56,697 nt of DNA from an archaeon (GCA_043817815.1 JBDRGM010000024.1:1-56697); one strand, 5' to 3'; numbered from the stretch's first letter, positions 4,018 through 26,660 are shown. Made by a program: numbers and translations. The notes: generated by a model not told the origin, from the sequence alone.

Positions 4018-5045
4018 TTTTTTCTTAACACTGGAAAAGTCTCCAAGATATTTTTATAATTTCCCATTACTATCCCAGAACCTTTTTTAATTAATTCTGG
4101 AATTTTTTCTTTGGGAATAAAAGGGGCGGGGCTTGAGCCAGCGATTCTGTATAATATTGTTGCTCCCGCATATTTAACCATTCTTCTTTCAATCCCTTCC
4201 AATCCAAGAGAAGTTATTTCATCCAGATATCCCTTGGCAATAGATTCAATTGCAGATTCTGTTATATTGTTATTTCCATTTAATAATGCAAATAAAAGAT
4301 AATGCCCTGTAGCAAGACCAATATCATAAGCAGGATCACCTATTCCTGAAGCAGTTTCAAAATCAACTATTCCAATACCTGCATTTGGTCTTTGAAAAAT
4401 ATTTTTAGGACAGCAATCAGCATTAATAAGGACATTATATTTATGTCTTGTATTAGCACTATCATAAAGCCTTCGCAATTCTCCCAACACTTTTTCATCT
4501 TTAACTTTTATTCCTGTTGTTCTTGCATTAAGCATGAGTTCCCAATTTTCTCTATCTTCCTTTTTCTTCCTAATATTATTTCTTTTTCCATATGTATGTT
4601 TGTGGGAAATTCCTAAAAACAATCCGATATTTCCAGCAACATCTTTCTTAAAATCCCCTTTTAAGAGGGCTTCTTGAAGTAGAACTCCCCCATCTCCTTT
4701 AACATCAGAAGTAATTAGGATATTGTTTAGAGAATCATAAGAAAAGACTTTCGGTATTCTAATCTCTTGAGGCATAATATTTTCAAGAGAGAGAAGAGCA
4801 TTCTTTTCAGATTCAATTCTCTGTGGAGGAAGAGATTGCAAATCATTTCCCACTTTTTCAGGATATTTTACTTGTTCGAGTGCTTGTTTAAAATAAACAT
4901 CTCCTTTATCTGTTCCTACCCGATATACAAAATTTAAAAGTCCTATATCAATAAACTCTGTTTCTTTTACTTCTGCATCTAGCAAATCTTTGCATTTATT
5001 AACAAAATATCTCTCTCTAAAATCTGGGTCTCTTAATTCTCTCAT
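4014..5045 (-). CDS. APH/choline-kinase/methylthioribose-kinase-fold small-molecule kinase
   Basis: 343 aa. Catalytic-loop-like INADCCPKNIF and metal-binding IGIVDFETAS (DFE equivalent of DFG). N-terminal FIDIGLLNFVYRV resembles the MTR/choline kinase nucleotide loop. Start and stop overlap neighbours (ATGA at 4014-4017). Substrate unknown. Confidence 0.6.
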   Translation of the reverse strand: MRELRDPDFRERYFVNKCKDLLDAEVKETEFIDIGLLNFVYRVGTDKGDVYFKQALEQVKYPEKVGNDLQSLPPQRIESEKNALLSLENIMPQEIRIPKVFSYDSLNNILITSDVKGDGGVLLQEALLKGDFKKDVAGNIGLFLGISHKHTYGKRNNIRKKKEDRENWELMLNARTTGIKVKDEKVLGELRRLYDSANTRHKYNVLINADCCPKNIFQRPNAGIGIVDFETASGIGDPAYDIGLATGHYLLFALLNGNNNITESAIESIAKGYLDEITSLGLEGIERRMVKYAGATILYRIAGSSPAPFIPKEKIPELIKKGSGIVMGNYKNILETFPVLRKK

Positions 5046-5054
5046 CTTAAGTTT

Positions 5055-6422
5055 TTATCTCCCTCCATGAATCAATTCTAAAATTTCTTTAATAGGCATG
5101 CAATCCCCCTCACATTCATGAGCTCTTCCATGAAGTAGTATTCCCTCAGCTGTCTTTTTCATTGCAGGATATGCACTTCTAAGAAGATGATTTGCATAAA
5201 TCACCATGTTCACCCCGACATCAATTAATTCTTCTTCTTTAATATGACTGTATGCAGAAGGAACCGCCACTAAAGGAACTTTGTTTTCAAATTTAGAATA
5301 CTCTTTGCAAAATTCAAAAATTTCTTTGCAATCCTTTTTTTTGCTGTGAATCATTATTGCATCTGCACCTGCTTTAATATATGCTTGTGCCCGAATCAAA
5401 GCATCATAAATCCCTTTGCCTAAAATCAAACTTTCAATTCTTGCTATAATCATGAAATCTTGTTCTAATTGTGCCCTTTTTCCATTAGAAATTTTTTCTG
5501 CAAATCTTGAAACCTCTTCTTGCACCTGCTCAACTTCAGTTCCAAATAAAGAATTTTTTTTCAGCCCGGTTTTATCTTCGATTATAACTGCAGATACTCC
5601 CAATCTTTCTAAGGTTCTAACCATAAATGTAAAATGTTCAATTTCTCCACCATTGTCTCCATCTAATATAATTGGTTTTGTTGTTGAATCTAAAACCTGT
5701 GTTATAGTATTAATTCTTGAAGTTAAATCAACAATTCCTGTATCTGGCTTACCTTTAGATACTGAATCAGTAAGACTACTTATCCAGACTCCATCAAATT
5801 CTTTTTTTGAATGGTCTTTTTTAACAACTGTTTTTTCAGCTATTAATGCAGTCAACCCATTATGAACCTCAAGAATCCTAATCATTGGTTTAAATTCAAA
5901 TAGTCTTCTTAATCTTTTCATTCTGACCTCTGAAGTTATCCCTATCTCTTTCATTCCTTCTTGTAATTTTGTTGAAGAAATATTTTTTGTGTAGGGCACT
6001 TCAATCATTTGCCCTCCCCATTCACTCAATGCATCTATCACTCTTTGCCGAATGTTTTGTTGAATACCTGTTCTCCAATCATCTCCGTGGACAACATAAT
6101 CTGGTCTGACTTTTCTCAAAGTTGGAACATAATCAAAATTTTCCTGTGGAACTACTTCCTTCACCCCCTTTATATTTTCCGCAATTATTCTTCTCTGTTC
6201 AAATGGAATCAAAGGAACTCTCTTATAACTTGCAATTGCTTCATCAGTTAGTAAACCAACAACAACATCCCCATATTTAACTGCTTCTCTTATAATATTA
6301 ATATGCCCATGGTGCAATAAATCTGCACATAATCCTACATAAACTTTCTTTCTACGCCCTTCGCTGAAATTGCCAATCTCTTCAGTATTTTCCAGGTTCA
6401 AATCTTTTTTCTCTTGTGTCAT
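5055..6422 (-). CDS. pepM: Bifunctional cytidylyltransferase - phosphoenolpyruvate mutase (Fom1-type fusion)
   Basis: N-terminal half: [23 protein letters not shown] (HxGH cytidylyltransferase motif). C-terminal half: [19 protein letters not shown], i.e. the EDKxxxxxNS signature that separates PEP mutase from other isocitrate-lyase-superfamily members. The track start 6464 is a TTG; the ATG at 6422 (MTQEKKDL...) is preferred. It still overlaps the upstream radical SAM gene by 41 nt. Confidence 0.85.
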
Positions 6423-7800
6423 TTTTATTATACTCTCTATTAAATTTAGCAGCAAGTTCTTCAACTTCTACTGATGTAAAGTCCTTTGTGTTAATATTCC
6501 CTAATTTGAATAACTGCTCATTCCAACCAGCACCCTTTCTCAAATAATCTTTTTTTTCGCATATATTTAACAATTCTGAACCTACTAATGGAGTTGCAGC
6601 AAAAAAACTTGAACTATCAAATCCACAATCACTCACAAAATTATATGTCTCATTCATATTTTCAATTGTTTCTCCAGGTAAACCACAAATAGCAAAAGAA
6701 TGAACCTTAATCCCAATTTCTTGGGCTTTTTTTACAAGGGGTTTCACCTTCGCTAAATCAAGTGGCTTCTTGACAATTTCATTTAAAACTCTTTGATTTC
6801 CACTTTCAACAGCAAATGTTAGCTGATAAAATCCAGCCTCCTTCATTTTTTCTAGCAATTCATTATCTAATGCCCACGCAGCAAGACCTTGCGGAGCACA
6901 CAAATGCAATCCAAAATCTTTAATTGCATCTAGAATTTCCATAGCTCTATTTTTATTTAATGTAAAATTATCGTCTGTAATCTGAATTTCATCTATATTA
7001 TATTTCTCTTTTAGTTCCTTTATTTCATTAATGACACTTTGTGCGCTTCTTCCCCTATAACGATTTCCCCAAAAATTTGTTGTTGTGCAAAAAACACATC
7101 TAGCAGAGCACCCTCTTGAAGTCATAATCTGAGCAATTCTTTTTCCTTTTGGGTATGGATTTTGAGGAGTATTTATCCTAAAATACATTTCCATATTTAA
7201 TAAATGTCTTGCAGGAAAAGACAGACTATTCAAATCCCCAATATACTGCTTTTTCGAATTAATGAATTTAATCCCTTCATATTTTCCAGCCAAGCCATCT
7301 ATTTCTGAAACATCTTTATCATTATTCAGAGCATCAAGTAATTGAGAAGTAGGAAGTTCCCCCTCTCCCAAAACAATAAAATTAACTATATCTAAAAAAT
7401 CTCCTACAGCATAAGTTGGATGTGAACCTCCAACTAATGTGATTATATCTTCATCAACTTCTTTAGTAATTTTTAAAACATGTTTCGCATTTCCCGCTTG
7501 CGAAGAAAATATGCAGGAAACACCAACAACGTCTGGTTTAAATCCATCAATTTTTTTCTTTACTGTTTCATCATCCAACCCATAAGTCACAAATTTCCCA
7601 TCATCACTTTCAACAGCATTATCATACCCCTCATTAGCAATATCTAAAATTTTAACTTCATAACCCTCTCTCTCCAAAAATCCTCCCAAATAAGCAAGAC
7701 CAATTGGTGTTATGCACCTCCTGACATCCTCCTTGAATAATGTATACCTCGGAACCATCAACATTACTTTTTGCACCTTTTTTACACAATCTTTTATCAT
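6382..7800 (-). CDS. B12-binding-domain (class B) radical SAM enzyme, Fom3-like by context
   Basis: 472 aa. N-terminal Rossmann-like B12-type domain (MLMVPRY...[22 protein letters not shown]; VGGSHPT). Radical SAM cluster motif [14 protein letters not shown] (CxxxCxxC). First gene of the phosphonate operon. Confidence 0.85.
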
Positions 7801-8164: not shown

Positions 8165-9598
8165 ATGCAAAAGAAAAATAATAAACCAAACATAATTTTT
8201 ATAACAATAGATGCCTTAAGGGCAAGAAACCTTGGCTGCTATGGTTATCACAGAAACACCTCCCCAAATTTAGACTCCTATGCAAAACAAGGAGTTTTGT
8301 TTGAGAAGTTTTTTTCCTCTTATAATTGTTCTCACAAATCATTTTTGTCAATTCTTAGTGGAAGACATGTGTTAGGACAGGACCTCGAGCACTATCCTTC
8401 AAAAAGAGAGATGAAATCCTTTTTTGATACAGGAGGAATTCTTTTGTCTGAAATACTTCAGAAAAATGGATATAAAACACATTTTTTAAGAAAACTATTT
8501 GGCTGGCAAAAGATTGGTTTTGATTACTCCCTTAAACAAGAGGCCCAAGAAGCATCTAAAAAGTGGAATATAATCAGATTTATTAAAAAAAGCAATAAGA
8601 TTTATAACATAGCACAATACGTCTTACATAACTCTTACGCTATTCCTGAAAAATTAGAAAGTAAAATAAGGTCGAATAACACTGGAGAAACAGCCACAAA
8701 TGAAGCAATAGAAATAATAAGGCAAAACAAAAAAAATAATTTTTTCTTATGGCTCCATTATACTGACGCTCATGTTCCCCACATTTTTCCACACTCATTT
8801 AGTGGCAAATTCACACCAAAAAAAGAAAGCAAGAGAATATTTGAAATCCCTGAATTCAATAAACGTAATAAAAAGGATATAGGTTTTTTAAAAGCCTGCT
8901 GGAAAGCTAAAGACACTGTTGAAGACATAATCGCAAAATATGATACAGCCATCTCATATGATGATTGCCTGATAAGTAAAATCGTAGATACTTTAAAAGA
9001 AGAAGATTTATTAAAAGACACAATTATATTCATTTTTGCAGACCATGGAGAAAGCCTAAAGGAGCATGGATTATATTTCACCCATTGCGGTTTTTATGAT
9101 ACTACTTTTCATATACCTTTAATCCTCTTTGGAAAAGGAATTTTAAAAAACAAAAGAATAAAGGCATTAACTCAATTAGAGGATATTACCCCCACTATCT
9201 TAGATTTAGCAAAGATAGAATATGATCCTGCTTTATTCGATGGTAAAAGTTTAGTTCCTCTAATGACTGAAGAAAAAGACAAGATAAGAGAATCTATTTT
9301 TATGGAAGAAAGGGCTTGTGGACTAATAAAAAGGGGAATAAGAACTGAAAAATATAAATACAGCGAATCACCTGAATCGGGATATTCAACATGCCTTCTT
9401 TGTAACACAAATCATGGAGGAACTGTTAATTTGTATGATTTGGAGAAAGACCCAGAAGAAAATATAAACCTTGCAAAAGAAGATAAAAAAATTTTAATTA
9501 AAATGAAATCAAAACTAAATAAAACAATAAAAGATTTGAAAACAACAGATGAGAAAAGAAGAATAAAAACTTTTATTAATAAGACTCTACATAGATAA
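8165..9598 (+). CDS. Alkaline-phosphatase/sulfatase-superfamily protein lacking the canonical formylglycine signature
   Basis: 477 aa. N-terminal NIIFITIDALRARNLGCYGY (metal-ligand Asp region) and IFADHGESLKEHG (sulfatase-family DHGE motif). The position where C/S-x-P-x-R is expected reads NCSHKSFLSILSGR. Confidence 0.7.
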   Translation: MQKKNNKPNIIFITIDALRARNLGCYGYHRNTSPNLDSYAKQGVLFEKFFSSYNCSHKSFLSILSGRHVLGQDLEHYPSKREMKSFFDTGGILLSEILQKNGYKTHFLRKLFGWQKIGFDYSLKQEAQEASKKWNIIRFIKKSNKIYNIAQYVLHNSYAIPEKLESKIRSNNTGETATNEAIEIIRQNKKNNFFLWLHYTDAHVPHIFPHSFSGKFTPKKESKRIFEIPEFNKRNKKDIGFLKACWKAKDTVEDIIAKYDTAISYDDCLISKIVDTLKEEDLLKDTIIFIFADHGESLKEHGLYFTHCGFYDTTFHIPLILFGKGILKNKRIKALTQLEDITPTILDLAKIEYDPALFDGKSLVPLMTEEKDKIRESIFMEERACGLIKRGIRTEKYKYSESPESGYSTCLLCNTNHGGTVNLYDLEKDPEENINLAKEDKKILIKMKSKLNKTIKDLKTTDEKRRIKTFINKTLHR

Positions 9599-9885: not shown

Positions 9886-10125
9886 TTCCTATTAAATATT
9901 TTACTCTTTAGGAAGATAACAAGGATTTAAAAAAAGAGGTATATCTTAAAGAATGTTAAATATGAATAATTAAAAAATGGCGAATAAAGAATTAGTTTTA
10001 ATGGGCTTGTTTTTCCTTGATTTATTTGTAATATTCTATGCTGTTTTAATGGCCAGATTAAAAGTAAAACTCGATGTGGAATATATAAAGGGACAAAAGA
10101 AGAAACTGTGGGGGATGCAGTAAAT

Positions 10126-10617
10126 ATGAAAAAATTGAATTTTGGATGTGGGACAAATATTTTAGAAGGTTACGATAATATAGATATTCAGAAAGGAGAG
10201 GGAATAATCAAGAGTTTTGATTTTGATAAATTTCCTTATCCAATCAAAGACAATACTTATGATGAAATTCTCTTTGAGAATACAATCGAACACTTATATA
10301 AACCAGAGAAAGCATTATTAGAACTTCATAGGATTTGCAAGTCAGACGCAAAAATAATCATAAAGGTTGTTTATTACAACAATAAAGGAGCATATACAGA
10401 TATGACTCATAGAAGTTTTTTCTCAGAGAGGAGTTTTGTTAATTTTGTCAATGAGGTTAATGTTCCAGATAAACAAAAAATGTTTGAGTTAGTCTCCTTA
10501 AAATTAATTCCTTCAAAATTTGGAGGCATTTTTCCAAAACAATTCCGAAGAAGGTTAAGTTCAATCCTGTCAGGGGTAATCAAATTGATTCATTTGGAAT
10601 TGAAAGTAATCAAATAG
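10126..10617 (+). CDS. Class I SAM-dependent methyltransferase
   Basis: Motif I LNFGCGTNILEGYDNIDI. ILFENTIEHL (motif II/III region). The track start 10108 is a GTG; the ATG at 10126 (MKKLNFGCG) is preferred. Confidence 0.7.
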   Translation: MKKLNFGCGTNILEGYDNIDIQKGEGIIKSFDFDKFPYPIKDNTYDEILFENTIEHLYKPEKALLELHRICKSDAKIIIKVVYYNNKGAYTDMTHRSFFSERSFVNFVNEVNVPDKQKMFELVSLKLIPSKFGGIFPKQFRRRLSSILSGVIKLIHLELKVIK

Positions 10618-10618
10618 A

Positions 10619-11443
10619 TTATTTTTTCTTACAAATTATCATATAATTTATTATCCCTAATAGACCAAACTTGGCTAAAATTCTTTTAGGCAGGCTTTCT
10701 TGAGTTTCAATTAGTTTTTTTAATTCATCTATATTTTCATACAATCCAATATCTCTTCCAATCTCTTCTTTAACAGGAACAAAGTTTTTTGAAATTAAAA
10801 CTTGAATGTCGTTTAATGTAAACATATAAGGGTGATGGATATTAAATATCTCTCTAGTTAAAATTTCCTTCAATTTTCCGTAAATCTTCGCTATATAAAT
10901 AAATTTTTTTTGATAAATATAATTCTCAAGATGAAAAATCCCCTCGTTTTTTAAGACCCTTTTTATCTCAGAAAAAACTCTGTCTGGAAGTTCTGTGTGA
11001 TCCAAAACATTAATTAAGATAACCACATTAAAATATTCGTCGGGAAATGGGATTTCTTCACCCCTTCCTTTTTTGAGATTACTTGATTCATAATCAAACT
11101 TGAATCTTTTTTTATAAAAATCAGCCAAGGGGTCTATAGAATATCTTTCTCCTTCTTTAAAATAATTAATAACATCTTCAGGTCCACAACCAATTTGTAA
11201 AATTTTAGTATTTTTATCTGTTTTAGTAAAATGAGACCAGTCTTCTAATAAAATTTCAGCTTTTTTTGGATATCTATCTCTTGATTCATTTAAAAGTGAT
11301 TCAGTTGTGTAATCCTCCCAAAATTCTTCCTCAGAATTTTGTGCAATTTCCCAGCGCTTAGCATCTGTTTTTCCTTTTAATTTACTTCTACGAGTTTCAT
11401 TAGTTCCTTTTTTTAAGTCATTTAACAATTTTTTAGATATCAT
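10619..11443 (-). CDS. Class I SAM-dependent methyltransferase
   Basis: 274 aa. Motif I ILQIGCGPEDVINYF; VVILINVLDHTELP; GIFHLE. Only 1 nt from the upstream radical SAM gene. Confidence 0.7.
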   Translation of the reverse strand: MISKKLLNDLKKGTNETRRSKLKGKTDAKRWEIAQNSEEEFWEDYTTESLLNESRDRYPKKAEILLEDWSHFTKTDKNTKILQIGCGPEDVINYFKEGERYSIDPLADFYKKRFKFDYESSNLKKGRGEEIPFPDEYFNVVILINVLDHTELPDRVFSEIKRVLKNEGIFHLENYIYQKKFIYIAKIYGKLKEILTREIFNIHHPYMFTLNDIQVLISKNFVPVKEEIGRDIGLYENIDELKKLIETQESLPKRILAKFGLLGIINYMIICKKK

Positions 11444-11444
11444 C

Positions 11445-12854
11445 TTAACTGTTCTTAAAATTTCTCATCCCAATAAAGGGCAGTACAACACCATCTCTCC
11501 ATATTAAAAATCTTTTAGCACTTTTTAAAATATGTCTGTAATCACCAACATTTAACCAATACCTTAGTCTTTTAATTTTGTTTCTATGAAATCCCGTACT
11601 TATAATTTTTTGAATAGTTCTGATTATATGCTCATCAGGAATTTCACTGACTTTGTGTTTTACTTCTATCTTTAATGTGTTCCCAGTCCATTTAACCCAT
11701 TCTTCTAATGTTTCAGGTTTTGTAATCAAACTTCTTGAAACACAGTAGTCAAATAAGGGGGCTCCTGGAAGAGGCAGATATATCTTAGCATTCGGAAGGT
11801 CTGGCTTATATTTTTTCACAAAATTCAAAGTCATGTTTATTTCTTCAACAGTTTCAGTAGGAAGTCCAACCATGAAACTTGCATCGCAGGTTATACCATG
11901 TCTCATACATTTTTTAACAGCATCTATGTTTTGTTGTATTGTTGTTCTTTTATTTAAAAAATTTAAAACTCTCTGGCTTCCAGATTCTATTCCTATCTGA
12001 ATTGTATGACACCCCGCATCCTTCAACACCTTTAACACTTCATTATCCAAGTCATCTGCTCTTGCAAAACAAAAAAAGTGCACTCCTTTATTTTTTAAAT
12101 ATTTACAAACTTCAATTGTTTGTTCCCGATTAGATAAGAAATTATCATCTGCAATTGAAAAGGTTTTTATTTTGTATTTTTCAATTAATTTCCTAAAGAA
12201 TTCTATCATCTGTTCAGATGTATAGCTTCTAACACAAGGTTTCCCGTTTACCCCCCAGCTTCGTGTAGAACAGCAAAAAGTACAATTCCCACTACAACCT
12301 CTACTTAAAACAACATAGATATGACCATATTTTTTAAGTTCAAGTAAATCATAATTAGGAAGCTTGAGTTTGGCAACATCAATAAAGGGTCTTAAGGGAT
12401 TCTTATTGACATTTTTCAGTTTTCCTAATTTTTTCGGATTTTTATCAAATGTATCACAAAATTCTAAAAACGCTTCTTCACCCTCGCCCCTAATAATGTA
12501 ATCTATATAAGGCTCTTTTAAAACAGAGTCTGGGTCAACAGAAGCATGAATCCCCCCAACAACTATAATCGCTCCCTCCAAAACACTCTGGGTTAACTTC
12601 CCAAGATGCATTACATCGTGAAGCATCGGAGTGGTCATGCTTGTAAGACCAATTATGTCGGGTTTATATTCTTTCAAGAGTTTCGTATAATCCTCGTCAT
12701 GAGGGTAAATATTTCTATCATAGATTTTAACTTCATGCTTATCTTCTATTGCAGTTCCAAGATAAACTAAATTTATTGGAGTATTAATCCTTTCCCTTCT
12801 AAATTCATTATTTTTAAGGTCATCATGAGGTTCAATCAATAAAACTCTCGCCAT
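11445..12854 (-). CDS. B12-binding-domain (class B) radical SAM enzyme
   Basis: 469 aa. MARVLLIEPHD...NLVYLGTAIEDKHEVKIYD, VGGIHAS (B12-type domain). LSRGCSGNCTFCCS (CxxxCxxC). Confidence 0.85.
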   Translation of the reverse strand: MARVLLIEPHDDLKNNEFRRERINTPINLVYLGTAIEDKHEVKIYDRNIYPHDEDYTKLLKEYKPDIIGLTSMTTPMLHDVMHLGKLTQSVLEGAIIVVGGIHASVDPDSVLKEPYIDYIIRGEGEEAFLEFCDTFDKNPKKLGKLKNVNKNPLRPFIDVAKLKLPNYDLLELKKYGHIYVVLSRGCSGNCTFCCSTRSWGVNGKPCVRSYTSEQMIEFFRKLIEKYKIKTFSIADDNFLSNREQTIEVCKYLKNKGVHFFCFARADDLDNEVLKVLKDAGCHTIQIGIESGSQRVLNFLNKRTTIQQNIDAVKKCMRHGITCDASFMVGLPTETVEEINMTLNFVKKYKPDLPNAKIYLPLPGAPLFDYCVSRSLITKPETLEEWVKWTGNTLKIEVKHKVSEIPDEHIIRTIQKIISTGFHRNKIKRLRYWLNVGDYRHILKSAKRFLIWRDGVVLPFIGMRNFKNS

Positions 12855-12857
12855 TTT

Positions 12858-13649
12858 CTATTTTCCTAAACCTTTCTCATTTAATTCAGATATTTTTTTT
12901 GATTTATATTTTGATAAAAACTTAGCCACTTTTTCAAACAATTCAAAGTCATCCAAATATGCCATTGTTGCAGGATGGATCAATATTATACTTGGAACTT
13001 TATTTTTTTCATTTTCTTTCACTCTTTTCTTTAAAATTTCAAACCACTCTTCTACCTTTATCCTGCCTTTTGTGCATGAAGCAAAAGGGTCGCGATTTTC
13101 AGGTCTTAGTTCTCCATAGATAATTGTGTTTTGGTCTACAGGAATATTAATCGGTAAATGAATCATTCCCCCTGATTCAAAAGGCTTTTTATCTCCTAGT
13201 AAATCTGAAATATATAAAACCCCTTCTTTTTGTAAAATTTCAAAAGTTTTTCTATTAGAACCAAACGCATGAGTTCTCCATGAACTCATTTTCAAACCTT
13301 TCTTTTCAAAAGCTTCTTTTGTTTTTTTAATATCTTTTTTTTGAAACTCAGAAGAGCCATATATACAGCCATAAATTCTCCTGTAAATATAACTTTTAAT
13401 AATGTTCATTTTTCCGAAATTATCATAGGTATGCCCCCCTAATTGAATATCATATTCTAGCAATTCGTTTATCTCTTGAGATTCATTTTTATTATCTAAG
13501 CTTATGCCATTAACAAAAAGCGTGCAATTTAACCCATACTTTTTCAAAATATCAAGATACTTCTTAGATGCTTTAATTTCAGAACCTATTTTTTTTTGTT
13601 CCCATGTCTTCAATTTGTTTGAATGAACATCTCCTGTAATAAATATCAT
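12858..13649 (-). CDS. Putative polysaccharide deacetylase-like (CE4/NodB-like) protein, divergent
   Basis: 263 aa. FITGDVHS, LGGHTYDN and SWRTHAFGS sit in the order and spacing of CE4 motifs 1-3, but all are degenerate. Start overlaps the stop of the upstream gene (13646-13649). Confidence 0.35.
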   Translation of the reverse strand: MIFITGDVHSNKLKTWEQKKIGSEIKASKKYLDILKKYGLNCTLFVNGISLDNKNESQEINELLEYDIQLGGHTYDNFGKMNIIKSYIYRRIYGCIYGSSEFQKKDIKKTKEAFEKKGLKMSSWRTHAFGSNRKTFEILQKEGVLYISDLLGDKKPFESGGMIHLPINIPVDQNTIIYGELRPENRDPFASCTKGRIKVEEWFEILKKRVKENEKNKVPSIILIHPATMAYLDDFELFEKVAKFLSKYKSKKISELNEKGLGK

Positions 13650-16360
13650 TTTATATTTAAAATTCTCATCAAGCCTTCGTCTAAGCTAACTTTTGGCTCC
13701 CAGCCAAGAAATTCTCTCGCTTTATTTATATCTGCATAACTATTACTGTTTATAAAATTATTATCACTAAAATTTACTTGCTTTGTTCCTTTTACTATCT
13801 TTTCTACTAATTCCATAACACTATGACTCTCTCCTGAACCTACATTAAATATTTCAAAAGAATTTTTAGCAATGCTCTTTTTAATAGCATCTATCACGTC
13901 ATCAACATAAACGAGGTCTCTTTTTGGATAAGGATTACCTAAATTTATGCTTTCATTTTCTAATTGAGAAATTATGTCTGGAATTAAAAATCCTTTTTGT
14001 TGCCCTTTACCATAGGGATTAAAGAGCCTTAAGATAATTACATTTACCCCAAATTTTTTATTATAGTGTTCACATAATTTTTCAGCAATTGCTTTTGTTA
14101 ATCCATAGAATGATTTTGGATTAACAGGGGTGTCTTCTCTTATTTGGGAATCTGAATCTCCATACACTGATGCACTTGAAACAAAAACCAAACCATTCCC
14201 AGTCTTTTTGCAATACTCTAAAACATTCAAAGTACCATTAACATTAACATTAAACATCTCTAACTCATTGTCATTTTTTGTTAATGCAGCTAAGTGAATA
14301 ATCTTATCTGCAAATAATCCATCAAAATCACTCATATTTTCAATATTTTTTCCTTCATCTTTATCAAAAGTAATAATCTCATATTTCCTCCCTAATTCTT
14401 CAACTAATCTTTTCCCCAAAAATCCACTACTCCCTGTCACAATTATCCTCCCAAGTTTTTGCCATCTTGCTCTTGCTGCTTCAACAATCTCTTTGATTCT
14501 ATTTTTAGAGAGATTCTCTGTTTCAATTACCGGTTCACCTTTTTGCAGATAATCATCAAAATTTTTAGACAGAATTTTTATTCCATACATTTCAGGATTA
14601 TTCCAAATAGGACTTCCAGGAAAAGGAGTCAACGAATAAAAATCCGCAAAGCCTAATCCTTTATTTCTAAACTCTTCTGCAAATTCAATTGTTTTTCTCG
14701 CTGTTTCTTCAGTCTCTCCAGGCAAGCCAATAATAAAAAAACCTTTAACATGGAGATTATATCTACTAAATAATTCTATAGCATTTTTATTAGATTCAAC
14801 AGTTGTTCCTTTATTTATATTTTGTAAAATTTTATCATTCCCGCTTTCAATTCCCAATGCAACAGAGATGCATCCACTATTCTTTAGCCTCCTGACCACA
14901 TCCTCGTTAACATCAGTGCTCCTCATTTCAATTCTATACTTCATCTGTTCTTCTTTAAAAATATCTATAATTGTTTCAAAATGTTCTTTTTTCACAACAA
15001 AGTTTTCATCAAAAATATACACTGCTTCATAACCTTGCTGTTTTAATTTTTTCACCTCTTGCCTTACATTTTCAGGATTTCTAAATTGAACCTTTTTTTC
15101 ATGACTTGCGCAGAAAATACAACTAAAAGGACAACCTCTTGAAGTCATCATCGTAGCTGTTCTTAAATTTTTGCCTGTTTCATAATCTTGAGTATACATA
15201 GAATATTTATTTGAATCTAATTTATCTCTATCTGGAATAGCAAAATCATTTATATTAACTTCTTCAGAAATAATTCCTCTTACACCTTGTATTGCTTTAA
15301 TAGATCCAACCTCTCCATTCCCAACAATTATTGCATCTGCAATACCTTCAAAAGATTCTGGCATTGCAGTTACATGAGCTCCGCCAACCATTATTTTTGT
15401 TTTAGGAGAAATAATCTTTATTTTCTCCCCAAGTTCTCTCATTTGTTTATAACAAGGAGAACTTATTACACTTAATCCAATCCAGCCAGGCTTTTCTGAT
15501 TTAACTTTCTCTAAAAATACATTCACATCAAAATGATTCAAATCAAATATCTCATTATTTATATTATTCTTAGTTAGTGCACTTGAAATATACATAATCC
15601 CTAAGGGGGGCCTGTCTCCAGCATCACGCAAGAAATTTCTTTCATCTGGCGAGACTAAAAAAACGTTTATTTCTTCATTTATTCTGCATAATTCCTGCGC
15701 CTTTTCAAAATCATCAATTTTTCCAATGTCTATCCACTGACCTTCATGTAAAAATTCAACAACATTTCCCCCTTCTGAAATCACCTTCTTAACTAATTCA
15801 TCCATGTTATAAAATTCGTCTTCTGGAATATATCTTAGAACTCTTGGATTCAGCATATACATTCCAGTGCATATCTTAACTTCTATTGTGGGCTTTTCAG
15901 TCCAACCAGTAATTTTTTTATTTTCTGTTTCCATAACCCCATAATTTACAGGAACCTCAATCTTCCTCGTAACCAGACTAACATCTGCATTATTTTCTTT
16001 GTGATTTTTTTTCATCTCTTTTATATTCAAGTCTGTGATTAAATCCCCATTCATCACAAAAAAATCTTCATGAATTTTATCTTTAAGAAGTTTTAAAGGC
16101 CCTGCAGTGCCCAATGGCTTTGATTCTTTTAGGTAATTTATATTTAGGCCTATCTTTAACCCGTCGCCAAAAAGAGTTTCAAAAAGATAAGATTTGTAAT
16201 TTGTTGCTAAAGTAATATCTCTTATCCCTTGGTTCCTTAGATTCTCAAAAATTAATTCCAGTACTGGTTTGCCATTGATTGGCAATAATGGTTTAGGAAT
16301 TACTTGTGTGTATGGTCTTAGCCTTTTTCCCTCTCCCCCTGCTAAAATCACAGCCCTCAT
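13646..16360 (-). CDS. Three-domain fusion: sugar-phosphate nucleotidyltransferase + B12-binding radical SAM + extended-SDR NAD-dependent epimerase/dehydratase
   Basis: 904 aa. aa 1 to about 235 (about 16360-15656): MRAVILAGGEGKRLRPYTQVIPKPLLPING. aa about 240-640 (about 15643-14441): PPLGIMYISSAL..., VGGAHVT, TSRGCPFSCIFCAS. aa about 645-904 (about 14428-13649): RIIVTGSSGFLGKRLVEEL ... FYGLTKAIAEK (GxxGxxG plus YxxxK). Confidence 0.8.
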   Translation of the reverse strand: MRAVILAGGEGKRLRPYTQVIPKPLLPINGKPVLELIFENLRNQGIRDITLATNYKSYLFETLFGDGLKIGLNINYLKESKPLGTAGPLKLLKDKIHEDFFVMNGDLITDLNIKEMKKNHKENNADVSLVTRKIEVPVNYGVMETENKKITGWTEKPTIEVKICTGMYMLNPRVLRYIPEDEFYNMDELVKKVISEGGNVVEFLHEGQWIDIGKIDDFEKAQELCRINEEINVFLVSPDERNFLRDAGDRPPLGIMYISSALTKNNINNEIFDLNHFDVNVFLEKVKSEKPGWIGLSVISSPCYKQMRELGEKIKIISPKTKIMVGGAHVTAMPESFEGIADAIIVGNGEVGSIKAIQGVRGIISEEVNINDFAIPDRDKLDSNKYSMYTQDYETGKNLRTATMMTSRGCPFSCIFCASHEKKVQFRNPENVRQEVKKLKQQGYEAVYIFDENFVVKKEHFETIIDIFKEEQMKYRIEMRSTDVNEDVVRRLKNSGCISVALGIESGNDKILQNINKGTTVESNKNAIELFSRYNLHVKGFFIIGLPGETEETARKTIEFAEEFRNKGLGFADFYSLTPFPGSPIWNNPEMYGIKILSKNFDDYLQKGEPVIETENLSKNRIKEIVEAARARWQKLGRIIVTGSSGFLGKRLVEELGRKYEIITFDKDEGKNIENMSDFDGLFADKIIHLAALTKNDNELEMFNVNVNGTLNVLEYCKKTGNGLVFVSSASVYGDSDSQIREDTPVNPKSFYGLTKAIAEKLCEHYNKKFGVNVIILRLFNPYGKGQQKGFLIPDIISQLENESINLGNPYPKRDLVYVDDVIDAIKKSIAKNSFEIFNVGSGESHSVMELVEKIVKGTKQVNFSDNNFINSNSYADINKAREFLGWEPKVSLDEGLMRILNIK

Positions 16361-16421: not shown

Positions 16422-17411
16422 TCAGATATTTTCTCTTTCCTCTTTATATTTATCAAAATTATTTCTTACATAATCTACAACTTCAGTCAAACCTTGTTCA
16501 AGGGAATATATAGGTTCCCATCCCAAGACGTTTTTTGCTTCTGAATTATCTCCTAATAACATCATCACCTCACTTTTTTCTGGTCGAATTCTTTCATCTT
16601 TTGTTTCAATTGTAAATTCTTTATTAATTATTGATTTAATTTTTTCAACAAGTTCTTCAATCGAGATAGTTTTACCAGAACTAATATTAATTGTTTTTCC
16701 AATTGACTCATCAGATTCAGCAACTTTGATAAATCCTCTGACAACATCTTTTACATAATTAAAATCTCTCTTTGGAGACAATGAACCTAGTTTTATCTTA
16801 TCATTTGTTAAAGCCTGATAAATAATTGTGGGTATAACTGCTCTCATTGATTGTCTTGGTCCATAGGTATTGAAAGGTCTAATTGTTGCTACAGGGAGAT
16901 TGTACGTCCTGTAAAAACTTTCAGCAAGTTTGTCTGCAGAAATTTTTGTAGCAGAATAAGGTGATTGTGCTTGCAAAGGGTGTTTCTCATTCATCGGAGA
17001 ATAAATAGCAGTCCCATAAACTTCAGATGTGGAAGTCACAACAACTTTTTTTACATCATATTCTCTAGAAGCTTGAAGTATATTTAATGTTCCTATTATA
17101 TTTGTCTCAACAAAATCGCGAGGGTCATCATAAGAATATGGAATTGAAATCAATGCTCCTAAATGAAAAACAACATCAACATCTTTCACAGCTCTTTTAA
17201 CACAATCATAATTCTTTAAATCTCCCCTAATTATCTCTATTTCATTGAGTATCTCTTTAGGGAGCTCCTTTAGATTTTTAATATTTCCGTCAGAATTATA
17301 TCTAACCAAAGCTCGTACCTTTGAACCCATCTTAACTAACTCCTCTGTCAGATGACTTCCAATAAATCCTCCAGCACCTGTAACCAGCACTCTTTTGCCT
17401 TTTAGTTCCAT
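16422..17411 (-). CDS. NAD-dependent NDP-sugar epimerase/dehydratase (extended SDR)
   Basis: 329 aa. VLVTGAGGFIGSHLTEEL (GxxGxxG), TSTSEVYG, SPYSATKISADK (YxxxK). Confidence 0.85.
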   Translation of the reverse strand: MELKGKRVLVTGAGGFIGSHLTEELVKMGSKVRALVRYNSDGNIKNLKELPKEILNEIEIIRGDLKNYDCVKRAVKDVDVVFHLGALISIPYSYDDPRDFVETNIIGTLNILQASREYDVKKVVVTSTSEVYGTAIYSPMNEKHPLQAQSPYSATKISADKLAESFYRTYNLPVATIRPFNTYGPRQSMRAVIPTIIYQALTNDKIKLGSLSPKRDFNYVKDVVRGFIKVAESDESIGKTINISSGKTISIEELVEKIKSIINKEFTIETKDERIRPEKSEVMMLLGDNSEAKNVLGWEPIYSLEQGLTEVVDYVRNNFDKYKEERENI

Positions 17412-19930: not shown

Positions 19931-21112
19931 CTTTTTCATCCTAACTTTTTCATAAAATTTTTCTATATCTTTTACTATGTTACCTGTGCTAGATTCTTTT
20001 TGGAACTTTCTCACATTTTTTTGTAACTGGAGGTAATTTTGTGCTTCTAATATTTTTCTAAAATTTTTCAAATCTATTTCTTCTATTGAAAACCCAATCT
20101 TATATTTATTAATTATCTCTGCAGTATATTCATTTTGGGCACTTGTAATAGTAGGTAATCCTGCTTCAAGATAATTTGTCACTTTTGCAGCATTCTCTGT
20201 TTTTAAAATTCCAGGATTTTCTTCAACCTCTGATTTGTCTCTAAAATCAGGCAAAATACCATAAGTATATTCAGACGATTCCTCATTCAGATTATAAGGG
20301 CTTACTCTTTCGTGAAAATGATAATAAAGATTATTTCTTGATTCTTCTCTTAGTATCTGGTTGTCTCCTGCATCTTCAGAAGGACCATATGAATGAAGGT
20401 GTATTTTTTGTAGGGTGAAAATTTTTATCAAATCTAAAAAAGAGATAGTATTATTATTCCAGCTTGGAAATGGACTTCCGCCATAAACAATATGAATTTC
20501 ATTATTTTTCTTTTGTTTTGGAGGAAAAATCCATTCATCAAGCGGACAAGGGAGCAGAGCCATTTTAGGGGCATTAACCTTATAATTAAGTAATTCAAAT
20601 TGCCCAAGTGAATGTTTATTTAAGACACCATCAACCATCTTGAAACATATTCTCTCACAGATTCTTTGAAATTCTCCTTTCAACCCAAATCTTTTAAAAA
20701 GAGCTTTTCTTGTTTCAACACCCCACATATCATTTGAAAAATATATTTTAGTTATATCTTTTCTTGATAATGATAGAGCCATTAAGCTAAATACATCTGG
20801 ACCAGTAACTTGGAAAATATAGGGTCGCACTTCTCTAAGTTTTTTTAAAAAAATTCTTCCTCTCTCACTTAAAATAGTATTTAAAAAATTAATAAATATT
20901 CTAAAAAAATTACGATTCAATTTATGACTTAATTCAAGCTCAAAAATATGATTATATGCCTTCCCATAAAACTCTTTATCAACTTTTGAAAAACAAAAAA
21001 GAATTGTTTCATATTCTCCTGTTAGTTTTAAACTTCTAGCAATTCTATAATTCATTGCAGTTGGTTTTGGTTCAATAAAAATAATTTGTTTCTTTTCCAT
21101 CATCCCATCCAA
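19919..21112 (-). CDS. Hypothetical protein, possibly a GT-B-like glycosyltransferase
   Basis: 397 aa long clean ORF with a 13-nt overlap to the upstream gene. The C-terminal half (IHIVYGGSP..., VTNYLEAGLPTITSAQNEY) only loosely resembles GT-B donor-binding domains. Start uncertain (MDGMMEKK). Confidence 0.3.
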   Translation of the reverse strand: MDGMMEKKQIIFIEPKPTAMNYRIARSLKLTGEYETILFCFSKVDKEFYGKAYNHIFELELSHKLNRNFFRIFINFLNTILSERGRIFLKKLREVRPYIFQVTGPDVFSLMALSLSRKDITKIYFSNDMWGVETRKALFKRFGLKGEFQRICERICFKMVDGVLNKHSLGQFELLNYKVNAPKMALLPCPLDEWIFPPKQKKNNEIHIVYGGSPFPSWNNNTISFLDLIKIFTLQKIHLHSYGPSEDAGDNQILREESRNNLYYHFHERVSPYNLNEESSEYTYGILPDFRDKSEVEENPGILKTENAAKVTNYLEAGLPTITSAQNEYTAEIINKYKIGFSIEEIDLKNFRKILEAQNYLQLQKNVRKFQKESSTGNIVKDIEKFYEKVRMKKLAQ

Positions 21113-21630
21113 TTATACAAATCCTTCCTCTCAATAATTATTGCAGATCTTCCAGAACTCTTTGCTATTTCATAAGCACCAATTACTTCAAGAGGAGTTT
21201 TAGGTTCATAAACATCAATATTTTTTACAATTTTTTTAAAAATTTCACTGAAATCCTGTGTATGTTGCATCCCCGGGTCTAATGGTTTACTTGAACCCAC
21301 TGCCGCTCTTATTATAACAGGCATTTTAAATTGTCCTTCTGACATTGTTTCTAATTTATCTAAATGATTAACAATACCGTCGAGAGCAATTAACATAAAG
21401 TCATGCCTCTCAAAAAACAAAACAGGCTTAAATCCTTCTAAAGCCATTCCCATTGCAAGTCCAATCATTAAATTTTCTGCCAAAGGTGTTTCAAGTTTTT
21501 TTGATTCAGGAATATTTGCAAGAGTTCCATATCCTTTAGAACCATAGCTTATGTTATATCCTATGAAGATTGTTTTCTCATCTTGGGCTAAATTTTCCAT
21601 TGATAATTTTATTGCCTCACCGTATTTCAT
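21100..21630 (-). CDS. Small 2-oxoacid dehydrogenase E1 beta-like / transketolase pyrimidine-binding-domain protein
   Basis: 176 aa. FIGYNISYGSKGYGTLANIPESKKLETPLAENLMIGLAMGMALEGFKPVLFFERHDFMLIALDGIVNH resembles the Pyr domain of E1 beta. The start codon abuts the stop of the E1 alpha-like gene (21630). Confidence 0.6.
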   Translation of the reverse strand: MKYGEAIKLSMENLAQDEKTIFIGYNISYGSKGYGTLANIPESKKLETPLAENLMIGLAMGMALEGFKPVLFFERHDFMLIALDGIVNHLDKLETMSEGQFKMPVIIRAAVGSSKPLDPGMQHTQDFSEIFKKIVKNIDVYEPKTPLEVIGAYEIAKSSGRSAIIIERKDLYNWMG

Positions 21631-22259
21631 TAGAAACTCGCACCCCCTGCTTTCATTCCAGAAAAATCAACCCAGTTGCCAGTGCCAACATGAGGATATG
21701 TTGCTTCAAAATAATATCTTCTCACACAACTTGGCCAGTTCATCTCAGACTTATTATATCTTACATGTTTAGGTGTCTCAACAGAACGATTATTGTCTTC
21801 AATAATAAATGTGCACGGCAAATCATGTCCATCAACATACCTCACAGCTTCGTAAAAATGCCCTTCGTCTTCTGCACCATCCCCAATAAAACACCAAACG
21901 CGATTGCTACTGCCTTTTTTCTTTAAAGCCCATGCAGTTCCTGCTGCAATAGCAACACAACCTGCAACAATCGAGGACGTAACAAAATTAATACTCTTAT
22001 CATAAATATGCATACTATCTCCACGCATTATAAATTCCTTCAATCTCTCAAAAGAACCTCCTGCCAGCAAATAATGATAATGCCCTCGATGCGTTGAAAA
22101 AACATAATCACCTGGCTTCACATCCTTAAATATCTCAATCAACTGCTCCTCGTTTCCTCCACAAAGATGAACAGGATATGGAATCTTCGCGGCCTCCCAA
22201 AGTTCTGCAATGTCATTTTCAAAATCTTTTAATTTTCTAATAATCTCTTCTTTATCCAT
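21630..22259 (-). CDS. Small ThDP-binding E1 alpha-like protein
   Basis: 209 aa. FIGDGAEDEGHFYEAVRYVDGHDLPCTFIIEDNNRS is a ThDP GDG-x(25-30)-NN motif. STHRGHYHYL resembles the E1 alpha region. Confidence 0.65.
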   Translation of the reverse strand: MDKEEIIRKLKDFENDIAELWEAAKIPYPVHLCGGNEEQLIEIFKDVKPGDYVFSTHRGHYHYLLAGGSFERLKEFIMRGDSMHIYDKSINFVTSSIVAGCVAIAAGTAWALKKKGSSNRVWCFIGDGAEDEGHFYEAVRYVDGHDLPCTFIIEDNNRSVETPKHVRYNKSEMNWPSCVRRYYFEATYPHVGTGNWVDFSGMKAGGASF

Positions 22260-25610: not shown

Positions 25611-26660
25611 TCAAACAAAATTATCATGCCCTAATGGATTTGTCAATCTATGAAGATATCTGTTAATAGAGTCTAATCTGCATCCATGCCTGCAACTTTC
25701 AACACCAATTTCATTTAACTTTCTCACAACCTTTCTCCTCCTCTCACTTTCCCAGATTTCGCTAAAACTCTTTTCATATAAATTACCATAACTAAATTCT
25801 TTTTTACCATAAAATAAATTACAAGGGATTATATTTCCATTTGCATCTATCAAAGCAAAAAATGGCAATCCATGGCATTTTTTATAAGTTGCACCCTCGT
25901 GAATTCTTTGTGCAGTAGCTTTTCTAAAAAATATTTTAAATTCATCAGTCTCAAGTTCTTTCAAAGGAGCTTCAAGAGAATTATATTCATCTAAATCAAC
26001 AACCAACCTATTCACACTATCTGGATGTTGAGAATATGGTTTTATCTGCAAATTGTCAACTCCAATCTCCTTCAACATCCCAGCAAGTTTCACAGCCTCG
26101 CCCATATTTTGAGGAATCACTAAAAACTGCGTCCCAATTACTACATTAAGCCCAAGTTCTCTCTTCACCCTAACGCACTCTCTCAAATTTTCAACTAATC
26201 TATTAAAATCATCAGAAGAAGTTCCATGAACTAAGGCATAATTTTCAGGACTTCCAGAATCAATGCTAAATCTTATCCAGGACAAATGAGGAAGGCAATC
26301 TTCAATTTTAGATTTCGTTAAAAGAACTCCATTTGTCGTCATTGAAATATCTAATCCAAACTGTTTTGCTTTCTGCACAAATAATCCTATGTCTTTATGA
26401 AGAGCAGGTTCTCCCTCACCAGCAAACATAATTGACTTCACGCCTTTCTCACCCATTTCTTTTAGTAAAGATAACATCACATCTCTATCAAAAAAATCAG
26501 AACTCTTCTCTAAAAAATCAAGCGCACAAAAAACACATTTATGATTGCACAAATTTGTCGGCGCTATCTCAACATAAATAGGATAACAATCACCCTTTTC
26601 ATACCACTCACCAACTCTCCTAGGATGATACATTAATTTGTGGTGATCAACATCTTCCAT
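25611..26660 (-). CDS. Radical SAM enzyme with Cys-rich SPASM/twitch-like C-terminus
   Basis: 349 aa. IAPTNLCNHKCVFCALD (CxxxCxxC), MFAGEGEPAL (SAM-binding GGE-like). C-terminal KKCHGLPFFALIDANGNIIPCN ... ESCRHGCRLD. Confidence 0.8.
   Translation of the reverse strand: MEDVDHHKLMYHPRRVGEWYEKGDCYPIYVEIAPTNLCNHKCVFCALDFLEKSSDFFDRDVMLSLLKEMGEKGVKSIMFAGEGEPALHKDIGLFVQKAKQFGLDISMTTNGVLLTKSKIEDCLPHLSWIRFSIDSGSPENYALVHGTSSDDFNRLVENLRECVRVKRELGLNVVIGTQFLVIPQNMGEAVKLAGMLKEIGVDNLQIKPYSQHPDSVNRLVVDLDEYNSLEAPLKELETDEFKIFFRKATAQRIHEGATYKKCHGLPFFALIDANGNIIPCNLFYGKKEFSYGNLYEKSFSEIWESERRRKVVRKLNEIGVESCRHGCRLDSINRYLHRLTNPLGHDNFV

Follow-up and report, generated by a model that had tools for sequence, protein, structure and literature searches.

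The class B radical S-adenosylmethionine (rSAM) enzymes are a very large family, and for most of them the substrate is unknown. Counted by characterised members, methylation is their commonest reaction (PMC11659888; PMC9204698). Fom3 methylates a cytidylylated substrate, and HpnJ clusters together with Fom3 and MoeK5 in similarity networks (PMC9204698, PMC8158854). Structures of OxsB, TsrM and TokK have provided three markers of cobalamin binding, namely a G-x-S/T in the beta3-alpha3 loop, a Gly-Gly on beta4 and a Gly-Glu at the start of alpha5 (PMC9204698). AprD4 has a class B-like fold with no cobalamin bound, and the structure deposited as PDB 9CCB is that of the methylase QCMT (PMC12931638). 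Here we describe an archaeal protein of 904 amino acids (aa) in which a sugar-1-phosphate nucleotidyltransferase (NT), a B12-type rSAM core and a short extended short-chain dehydrogenase/reductase (SDR) are fused in this order. It is encoded on the minus strand at 13646..16360, stop codon included, of contig JBDRGM010000024.1 (assembly GCA_043817815.1), whose 56,697 nucleotides are referred to as the window. NCBI annotates the protein (MFH1607961.1) only as 'MAG: sugar phosphate nucleotidyltransferase [archaeon]'. The fusion had been pointed out in an earlier reading of the window made from the DNA alone (the sequence-only reading), which knew of no characterised enzyme with this architecture. 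We agree, as neither the literature searched nor any of 18,950 NCBIfam models contained a characterised or described protein with NT, B12-rSAM and SDR modules, a literature search for a B12-rSAM enzyme acting on nucleotide sugars, or for an NT-rSAM-SDR fusion, returned nothing relevant, and a protein database search gave only one further example, designated P0002.

The open reading frame (ORF) begins with ATG, which has a GGAG 10 nt on its 5' side, and runs for 904 codons with zero internal stops in the ORF listing of the window; its stop codon overlaps the start of the next gene as ATGA. All of the strings quoted in the sequence-only reading (MRAVILAGGEGKRLRPYT, TSRGCPFSCIFCAS, IIVTGSSGFLGKRL and YGLTK) occur in this one frame, and the domain order that it gave, with intact motifs, is reproduced by four Pfam domains, each above its gathering cut-off. 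The DNA has a G+C content of 31-32%, and an open frame of this length at this composition, with four significant domains, is far beyond chance. The NT module (residues 1-224; 15689..16360, minus strand) matches PF00483 (NTP_transferase) over residues 3-223 and profile positions 2-240 of 245 (E 1e-44, 153 bits, cut-off 21.2). Its translation and its alignment to 8yre contain the complete signature G-x-G-x-R-L-x-P-x-T (LAGGEGKRLRPYT) as well as GTAGP, (N)GD (here NGD), EKP and W-x-D-x-G (here WIDIG). The closest solved structures are eukaryotic GDP-mannose pyrophosphorylases, 8yre among them (E 3e-34), and an HddC-type heptose-1-P guanylyltransferase is matched at E 3e-23. Because the closest relatives use GTP, we lean toward GTP as the nucleotide. 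The module stays below the cut-off of every NCBIfam equivalog (Man-1-P guanylyltransferase, RmlA, HddC, GlmU-type and others).

The middle module has the class B layout, in which an N-terminal Rossmann-type B12-binding-like domain (residues 232-366; 15263..15667, minus strand) precedes a radical SAM partial TIM barrel with a C-terminal cap (residues 367-635; 14456..15262, minus strand). The former matches PF02310 at residues 247-350 (E 1.7e-15, 57 bits, cut-off 32.1) and the latter PF04055 at residues 406-561 (E 6.6e-30, 105 bits, cut-off 29.5). The three cysteines of the cluster motif C410-x3-C414-x2-C417 (bases 15110-15133) are invariant in 65/65 relatives, and the barrel also carries G503-I-E505-S-G. 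A dedicated AlphaFold2 (AF2) model of residues 225-640, built on an alignment of 65 family members, shows a Rossmann domain and an rSAM barrel with high confidence (pLDDT 96, pTM 0.92); the sequence-only reading had allowed that the cobalamin-binding fold might be missing from the middle domain, and it is not. Foldseek placed this model closest to AprD4 (TM 0.80, root-mean-square deviation (RMSD) 4.1 Å, E 5e-21), with TsrM (TM 0.74, RMSD 8.6 Å), CysS (0.72, 4.3 Å), OxsB (0.69, 12.9 Å), MiaB (0.67, about 5 Å) and MgmA (0.66, 7.8 Å) below it; TsrM, CysS, OxsB and MgmA align over the full length of the model. In a phmmer search of solved structures, the best matches were MgmA/QCMT (9CCB; E 7e-13), AprD4 (2e-12) and TokK (4e-8). 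Among NCBIfam models the scores were 151 bits for PhpK (cut-off 600), 118 for HpnJ (578), 110 for the ladderane rSAM family, 107 for BchE, 104 for MJ_1487 (251), 81 for QCMT (TIGR04014; 360) and 68.5 for the AprD4 family (NF033070; 500), and the cut-offs of the Sden_1168, HpnR and KedN5 families were not reached either.

In the AF2 model and the 65-sequence alignment, all three cobalamin markers sit at the predicted secondary-structure positions. These are G295-x-S297 in the beta3-alpha3 loop (G in 54/65 family members, S/T in 56/65), G326-G327 on beta4 (both in 65/65) and G349-E350 at the start of alpha5 (G in 60/65, E in 62/65). AprD4 carries H-T at the Gly-Glu position in a pairwise alignment. 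The fold alone is insufficient as proof of cobalamin use, because AprD4 has it and binds no cobalamin. The label 'B12-type' given in the sequence-only reading is therefore sound as regards fold and motifs, and is a prediction as regards the cofactor. Since the structure-derived markers are conserved throughout the clade, we consider it probable that the module is a true cobalamin enzyme.

The SDR module (residues 636-904; 13649..14455, minus strand) was delimited by PF01370, matches to PDB entries and alignment with unfused SDRs. It matches PF01370 (Epimerase / GDP_Man_Dehyd) over residues 639-898 (E 6e-43, 147 bits, cut-off 20.9), falls about 40 residues short of the length of typical extended SDRs and joins the rSAM module almost without a linker (WQKLGRIIVTG). 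Its motifs GSSGFLG (dinucleotide-binding), SSASVYG and YGLTK, the last two forming the S...YxxxK triad, are conserved among fused and unfused relatives in the alignment. In addition, beta2 ends in FD; an Asp at this place in SDRs suggests NAD as the cofactor. NDP-sugar 4,6-dehydratases of the RmlB/GMD/LegB type carry one or more acidic residues right after the catalytic Ser/Thr (TDE or TSE); no such residue follows the Ser of SSASVYG, whereas the neighbouring SDR at 16422-17411 has STSEVYG. Because the triad is present and the acidic residue is absent, the fused SDR is predicted to be of the reductase or epimerase type and not a dehydratase. Its matches among PDB entries are of about equal strength to UDP-xylose synthase, 4-epimerases and GDP-4-keto-6-deoxymannose reductases.

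Triple fusions numbered two in a search of 5.8 billion protein clusters, the window protein and P0002 (908 aa, 73% identity over 100% of the length, ENA and Logan contigs). The latter also holds the three modules within one ORF, in a syntenic operon on a contig independent of the window. Stop codons or frameshifts between the domains, which the sequence-only reading had raised as a concern, are absent from the assembled ORF, and the independent orthologue is continuous as well. The NT/rSAM junction comprises 7 residues (225-231, CRINEEI; 15668..15688, minus strand) and is in frame in both proteins, with FEKAQELC-RINEEI-NVFLVSPDE in the window and FEKAQELC-SIDKKM-KVFLVSPDE in P0002, where a Met lies in the junction. 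The rSAM-SDR junction is likewise in frame in both triple fusions (ARARWQKLG[RK]I[IL]VTGS) and is shared by four rSAM-SDR proteins, P0003-P0006 (667-685 aa, 54-74% identity), from which this shorter form is known. The N-termini of these four coincide with the end of the NT module, the proteins starting right after the NT/rSAM junction, so that the linker-less rSAM-SDR junction is common to six proteins. A full-length AF2 model gave pLDDT >90 for residues 232-904, this junction included. Its input was an alignment (A2) mixing single-domain relatives, in which the NT sequences had been wrongly placed by MAFFT (12-16% identity); with pLDDT 30-50, the NT part of the model is unreliable, and no inter-domain geometry was drawn from it. 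The three modules must pack closely, because the NT-rSAM linker is about 7 residues long and the rSAM-SDR linker is essentially nil.

The fusion is flanked by the genes that the sequence-only reading had placed in an operon with it (a second SDR, a deacetylase-like protein, a second class B rSAM enzyme and a methyltransferase), all of them on the minus strand and tightly packed. Directly upstream lies a LegB/Pal-like NDP-hexos(amin)e 4,6-dehydratase-type SDR (16422..17411, minus strand), which matches the LegB model TIGR04180 over its full length and narrowly misses the cut-off (446.8 bits, cut-off 475); its closest solved relative is Pal of Bacillus thuringiensis (6bwl, E 3e-42). Orthologues of 66-69% identity are found directly upstream at loci L001, L005 and L007, and the dehydratase-type SDR is a separate gene in every relative. 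Directly downstream lies a gene for a CE4 (polysaccharide deacetylase)-like protein (12858..13649, minus strand; PF01522, 33 bits), which has no significant relative among solved structures. A CE4-like gene also follows the SDR in L001 (76% identity), in L007 (63%) and, by position and Pfam domain, in L093. Together, the LegB-like dehydratase and the CE4-like gene hint at an N-acetylhexosamine substrate. The operon continues with a second B12-binding/radical SAM protein, rSAM2 (469 aa; 11445..12854, minus strand), which is kept after the CE4-like gene in L001 (77%) and L093, and ends with a class I SAM methyltransferase (274 aa; 10619..11443, minus strand). The order dehydratase, fusion, CE4-like gene and rSAM2 is syntenic in L001, and the rSAM-SDR core, the CE4-like gene and rSAM2 are present in L093. 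A legionaminic-acid-type pathway was considered on account of the LegB-like dehydratase and rejected, since the window yielded no genes of the NeuB, NeuA or aminotransferase type. A promoter and terminator scan of the locus, made with bacterial consensus sequences on this archaeal DNA, gave nothing above shuffled sequences.

The origin of the fusion was traced by scanning GTDB, at one genome per species, with the fusion-family alignment as query and resolving the matches by ORF. Scan matches spanning residues 1-900 first gave the impression of a triple fusion in many species; this was rejected, as the ORFs proved to be separate adjacent genes without the rSAM module. They form a cassette with the same order and strand as the window, whose three products are a LegB-like SDR (about 329 aa), an NT (about 235 aa) and a short SDR (about 264-295 aa). 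Its distribution covers Woesearchaeota, Thermoplasmata, Bacteroidota, Alpha- and Betaproteobacteria, Nitrospirota (Ca. Magnetominusculus), Bacillota, Margulisiibacteriota and Planctomycetota (Sedimentisphaerales). The closest locus is L007, on Ca. Woesearchaeota contig CAZCDH010000005.1, where the CE4-like gene comes directly after the SDR and the gap between NT and SDR is 5 bp. Its dehydratase, SDR and CE4-like protein are 68%, 53% and 63% identical to those of the window, and its separate NT gene matches the NT module with 289 bits. Judged by these comparisons, the fusion arose from a cassette of LegB-like dehydratase, NT, short SDR and CE4-like gene by in-frame insertion of a B12-type rSAM module of about 400 aa, and rSAM2 and the class I methyltransferase are additions appended to it. 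The short SDR has an obvious role in the rSAM-less cassette, the C4 reduction (or epimerisation) of the dehydratase product.

Joining of these genes has taken other forms as well. NT-SDR fusions without rSAM (P0007 and P0121, 55-59% identical) still have the dehydratase gene upstream, P0008 is an SDR-NT fusion in reverse order, and independent NT-SDR fusions occur in high-G+C bacteria (P0142, P0157, P0191). Because the same modules are separate in many phyla and other fusion types exist (NT-SDR, rSAM-SDR, SDR-NT), fusion among these neighbouring genes is recurrent and evolutionarily labile. The window itself has NT fusions to a phosphonopyruvate-decarboxylase-like enzyme and to GT4, and a cytidylyltransferase fused to phosphoenolpyruvate (PEP) mutase; gene fusion is thus a habit of this small AT-rich genome and not necessarily a sign of channelling. 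In the sequence-only reading the protein was portrayed as a single-polypeptide assembly line. The three modules are indeed physically coupled, but 4,6-dehydration is the task of a separate gene here and in all relatives, so that the intermediate either has to be released and taken up again or is handled within a complex that includes the separate dehydratase. The assembly-line idea over-reads what is better described as labile joining of neighbouring operon genes, which need not imply substrate channelling.

Relatives of the rSAM module are found in similar surroundings. The rSAM-SDR fusions adjoin NT genes, dehydratase-type SDRs, DegT aminotransferases and glycosyltransferases. At L003, the rSAM-SDR gene lies within a 20-gene glycan cluster, with DegT directly upstream and a separate NT and dehydratase-type SDR one gene downstream. 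An unfused NT gene was expected upstream of P0003 as well; the upstream fragment there encodes a membrane protein. Among 1.84 billion representatives searched, stand-alone rSAM relatives of 392-409 aa and 37-45% identity cover residues 232-635 end to end. The clade comprises dozens of 50%-identity clusters, its copies on viral contigs run into the hundreds, and the stand-alone members P0122-P0125 reached no NCBIfam cut-off. Those looked up lie between genes for GT4/GT2, methyltransferases, PIG-L or SDRs (also SDR pairs) and split E1-type thiamine pyrophosphate (TPP) enzymes, often on virus-like contigs, which carry PolB, Prim-Pol and a DNA methylase (L089/L090) or HNH nucleases and many small ORFs (L091/L092). 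A scan of IMG/VR with a 10-sequence alignment (A4) gave at least 359 tblastn-confirmed stretches related to the middle module, and these viral relatives typically adjoin GT4/GT2, a methyltransferase-like gene of about 410 aa and SDR pairs. With window proteins as probes, a search of low sensitivity from which no enrichment is claimed, a dehydratase-type SDR was detected at 18/80 viral loci (L095-L174). Viral contig L097 carries, as separate genes, a dehydratase-type SDR, an NT, a 401-aa B12-binding/rSAM protein, a rhamnosyl-O-methyltransferase-like gene and GT2; the end of the NT gene overlaps the start of the rSAM gene, in the NT-to-rSAM order of the fusion. Glycan-modification modules of viruses thus appear to include rSAM enzymes of the class B type. 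Because of the glycan, NT and SDR contexts of its members, a nucleotide-sugar substrate is the most economical reading for the whole clade.

Two architectural variants were seen in the same rSAM family. P0153 (764 aa) has an insertion of about 330 residues right after CxxxCxxC (…GCVYGCVFC/LDGNTMVV … VLVHN/CGSAKIKKW…), which looks like an intein (Hint-type, with HN and then Cys). P0140, P0146 and P0188 (2096-2331 aa) have 4-7 separate stretches matching the rSAM module and apparently contain tandem class B-type domains.

We propose that the fusion is a tri-functional enzyme of nucleotide-sugar tailoring for a cell-surface glycan, in which cobalamin-dependent C-methylation is followed by C4 ketoreduction, and put the probability of this reading at roughly 45%. 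It builds on the architecture, the intact motifs, the cassette origin, the glycan context and the conserved cobalamin markers described above; the sugar, the order in which rSAM and SDR act, the position attacked and methylation itself are what we infer. The NT module would convert a hexose- or N-acetylhexosamine-1-phosphate and an NTP to an NDP-sugar, from which the separate upstream dehydratase would form an NDP-4-keto-6-deoxy intermediate. The rSAM module would then abstract a hydrogen from the nucleotide-linked sugar by means of a 5'-deoxyadenosyl radical, and the resulting carbon radical would most probably be methylated from methylcobalamin, giving a C-methyl-branched or chain-extended sugar. 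The fused SDR would reduce the C4 ketone with NAD(P)H. Further modification by the CE4-like protein, rSAM2 and the methyltransferase could follow, before the glycosyltransferases of the surrounding island use the product. Methylation is supported by the best family-level similarity of the rSAM module, which is to the main methylase cluster (PhpK and HpnJ), with MgmA/QCMT as the best PDB sequence match. Precedents exist in the C-methylation of sugars by GenK, GenD1 and MoeK5 and in the nucleotide-linked substrate of Fom3.

Several points weigh against this proposal. The rSAM module reaches the cut-off of no curated class B family in NCBIfam, and all of its scores are far below; because no curated family is matched, its chemistry has to be extrapolated from remote relatives. 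Reactions other than methylation are known for cobalamin-dependent rSAM enzymes too (OxsB, BchE), the closest solved fold is that of AprD4, a non-methylase that binds no cobalamin, and genes for cobalamin acquisition were not identified in the window. For the NT module, the best equivalog, NF052502 (Man-1-P guanylyltransferase), scores 159 bits against a cut-off of 440. The SDR needs no rSAM partner, as the rSAM-less cassette works, and a keto-producing radical reaction would explain the tight rSAM-SDR fusion equally well.

The main rival is a deoxygenation resembling that of AprD4 and AprD3, in which the rSAM module would act on an NDP-sugar as a cobalamin-free 1,2-diol dehydratase (or DesII-like lyase). 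Hydrogen would be taken from the carbinol carbon and the neighbouring hydroxyl eliminated, and the resulting deoxy-keto sugar would then be reduced by the fused SDR, which might also have reduced the 4-keto-6-deoxy intermediate beforehand; the product would be a 3,6-dideoxy-type sugar made without pyridoxamine phosphate (PMP) enzymes. AprD4 is at the top of both fold searches, above the cobalamin enzymes with their TM of 0.66-0.74, and is the second-best PDB sequence match. It needs a dedicated NADPH-dependent reductase, AprD3 (PMC5461906, PMC7941887), an arrangement mirrored by the linker-less rSAM-SDR fusion. DesII is an rSAM lyase that acts on NDP-sugars (PMC11434129), and a DegT aminotransferase directly precedes P0005, which recalls the logic of DesI and DesII. 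On the other hand, the AprD4 family model ranks under ten other class B families, and GG, GE and G-x-S/T are strongly conserved in the clade, GE being absent from AprD4. The fold preference may merely reflect a similar compact size (about 400-450 aa), and the short SDR already has its role in the rSAM-less cassette. We therefore regard a deoxygenation of this kind as unlikely, and we doubt slightly more the specific version in which the linker-less rSAM-SDR didomain would be a fused, cobalamin-free AprD4/AprD3-type radical deoxygenase acting on an NDP-6-deoxy-hexose.

Less likely again is some other radical chemistry of the cobalamin type, such as an epimerisation, a dehydrogenation or an OxsB-like ring contraction or skeleton rearrangement, with the SDR processing the resulting carbonyl. 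Class B enzymes that are not methylases exist (OxsB, BchE, HpnJ), OxsB is among the fold matches (TM 0.69), and the failure to match a curated family leaves the chemistry open. The module has no specific similarity to OxsB- or BchE-like enzymes, however, and lacks the CX4CX2C motif and extra domains of OxsB, and methylation is the commonest reaction among characterised class B members in the tallies noted at the outset (PMC11659888; PMC9204698).

The rSAM module could also act on a phosphonate made by neighbouring genes, by P- or C-methylation as in Fom3 and PhpK, with NT and SDR merely co-located. The PhpK P-methyltransferase family is the best NCBIfam match of the rSAM core, and some 6 kb downstream, likewise on the minus strand, there is a phosphonate cluster, which neighbours the sugar operon in L001 as well. 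That cluster has a B12-rSAM gene of its own (6382-7800), however, which fits a P-methyltransferase family (Sden_1168) far better, and relatives at L003, L004 and L094 (rSAM-SDR) and at L087-L092 and L097 (stand-alone) lie in glycan clusters where no phosphonate genes are seen. Since fusion to an NDP-sugar-type SDR and an NT also argues for a sugar substrate, we consider a phosphonate substrate improbable. That the fusion is an artefact of mis-assembly or sequencing error, or a decaying pseudogene whose modules are not all active, might be suspected from a metagenome-assembled contig when most genomes carry the modules as separate genes, but is very unlikely because the 73%-identical orthologue has the same continuous ORF, in-frame junctions and operon, the rSAM-SDR junction recurs in four further proteins, the catalytic motifs of all three modules are intact and conserved, and AF2 confidence exceeds pLDDT 90 across that junction.

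The operon lies in a glycan island exceptionally rich in rSAM genes for an archaeon whose genome appears to be small (DPANN-like). Among GT2, GT4 and GT9 genes, the window holds 13 radical SAM genes. Seven have a B12-binding domain (6382-7800, 11445-12854, 13646-16360, 30243-31721, 38417-39844 and 41059-42597, all on the minus strand, and 48279-49817 on the plus strand), four are of the SPASM type (25611-26660 and 32202-33218, minus; 34152-35264 and 42708-43841, plus) and two are others (35285-36202, minus; 43843-44823, plus). The phosphonate biosynthesis cluster (434-7800, minus strand) consists of an iron-containing alcohol dehydrogenase (Fe-ADH; 434-1528), an 830-aa fusion of NTP_transf_3 and a phosphonopyruvate-decarboxylase-like TPP enzyme (1525-4017), an APH-type kinase, a Fom1-like cytidylyltransferase and PEP mutase fusion (5055-6464) and the B12-rSAM gene at 6382-7800, for whose product the nearest family is that of the Sden_1168 P-methyltransferases (338 bits, cut-off 575). 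Adjacent to the cluster is a gene of the sulfatase family (8165-9598, plus strand). In L001 the cluster, the sulfatase and the position next to the sugar operon are all kept, and the decarboxylase is a plain protein of 375 aa without an NT domain. The location of the cluster beside the sugar operon suggests a phosphonate-decorated glycan.

Other genes of the island were noted in passing. At 45680-47605 (minus strand) a sugar-phosphate nucleotidyltransferase is fused to GT4 in a protein of 641 aa ('activate and transfer'), the fourth nucleotidyltransferase fusion of the window. At 26738-28363 (minus strand), transketolase pyrimidine-binding and C-terminal domains are joined to a class I methyltransferase in a protein of 541 aa, next to which lies a separate transketolase N-terminal gene (28353-29183, minus strand); homologues are found in L007 (18646-20381), and in the viral locus L095 only the N-terminal gene is matched. 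A further split pair, of E1-type TPP enzymes (21630-22259 and 21100-21630, minus strand), is 37-44% identical to pairs on the phage-like L091 and L092, which also carry a stand-alone rSAM relative. We speculate that these transketolase and TPP pairs may be enzymes forming two-carbon branches on sugars. At 29217-30248 (plus strand), amid the rSAM genes, lies a DUF362 protein into which a 2x[4Fe-4S] ferredoxin domain is inserted; it could, again speculatively, be an electron donor for the rSAM enzymes of the island. At 10108-10617 (plus strand), the similarity of a 169-aa ORF with a GTG start to class I methyltransferase profiles is confined to their C-terminal part; L007 holds a counterpart of 53% identity (8250-8591), and the ORF may be a truncated gene or have a mis-called start.

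For the class B family at large, the fusion serves as a 'Rosetta stone' for one uncurated compact clade. It ties this virus-rich clade of about 400-aa proteins to a sugar NT, a sugar-nucleotide reductase and a cassette beside a 4,6-dehydratase, and so leaves a handful of NDP-6-deoxy-hexos(amin)e intermediates as candidate substrates, which makes the chemistry directly testable in vitro. If the module is a methylase, cobalamin-dependent C-methylation would take place at the nucleotide-sugar level in the synthesis of a surface glycan and not of an antibiotic, of which we found no description. If it is AprD4-like, it would represent a new PMP-independent route to 3-deoxy or 3,6-dideoxy sugars, with which archaea and many phages would decorate their glycans. 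Either outcome would help to interpret both the rSAM-rich glycan islands in DPANN-like archaea and the modules with which phages modify glycans.

Compared with known systems, the fusion is nearest to the unfused cassette of the L007 type, which has orthologous dehydratase, NT, short SDR and CE4-like genes with order and strand unchanged. There the genes are separate and rSAM is absent, whereas the window adds the fused rSAM module of about 400 aa, rSAM2 and the methyltransferase; an experimentally defined product of the unfused cassette was not found. Fom1 and Fom3 of fosfomycin synthesis share the pathway logic, in that an NT installs a nucleotidyl handle and a B12-rSAM enzyme then acts on the nucleotide-linked molecule (PMC9204698, PMC8158854). 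Their substrate is CMP-hydroxyethylphosphonate, the NT is fused to PEP mutase and not to rSAM, no SDR takes part, and no close sequence relationship between Fom3 and the rSAM module was seen. GenK, GenD1 and MoeK5 are class B rSAM enzymes that C-methylate a sugar carbon beyond the reach of ordinary SAM methyltransferases (PMC9204698). They are stand-alone proteins of about 500-650 aa that act on (pseudo)oligosaccharide or lipid-linked intermediates in antibiotic (aminoglycoside or moenomycin) pathways, whereas the module of the window is compact (400 aa), is fused to NT and SDR and belongs to a surface-glycan locus, and no curated models of these enzymes were among its matches. AprD4 and AprD3 have in common with the fusion the two-domain layout, the pairing of rSAM with an NAD(P)H reductase on a sugar and, for AprD4, the best fold match; AprD4 uses no cobalamin (PMC12931638), lacks the GE marker and acts on paromamine, and the two are separate proteins. 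MgmA/QCMT (9CCB) is the best sequence match among solved structures and shares the compact size and class B fold, but is a glutamine C-methyltransferase whose substrate is a protein (methyl-coenzyme M reductase), and by TIGR04014 the fusion is not a member of its family. DesII is an rSAM deaminase working on a nucleotide-activated 6-deoxy sugar (TDP-4-amino-4,6-dideoxyglucose) downstream of a 4,6-dehydratase (PMC11434129); it has no B12-binding-like domain, is unfused and is absent among the sequence and fold matches. All parts of the fusion come from known superfamilies, and what is new is their combination.

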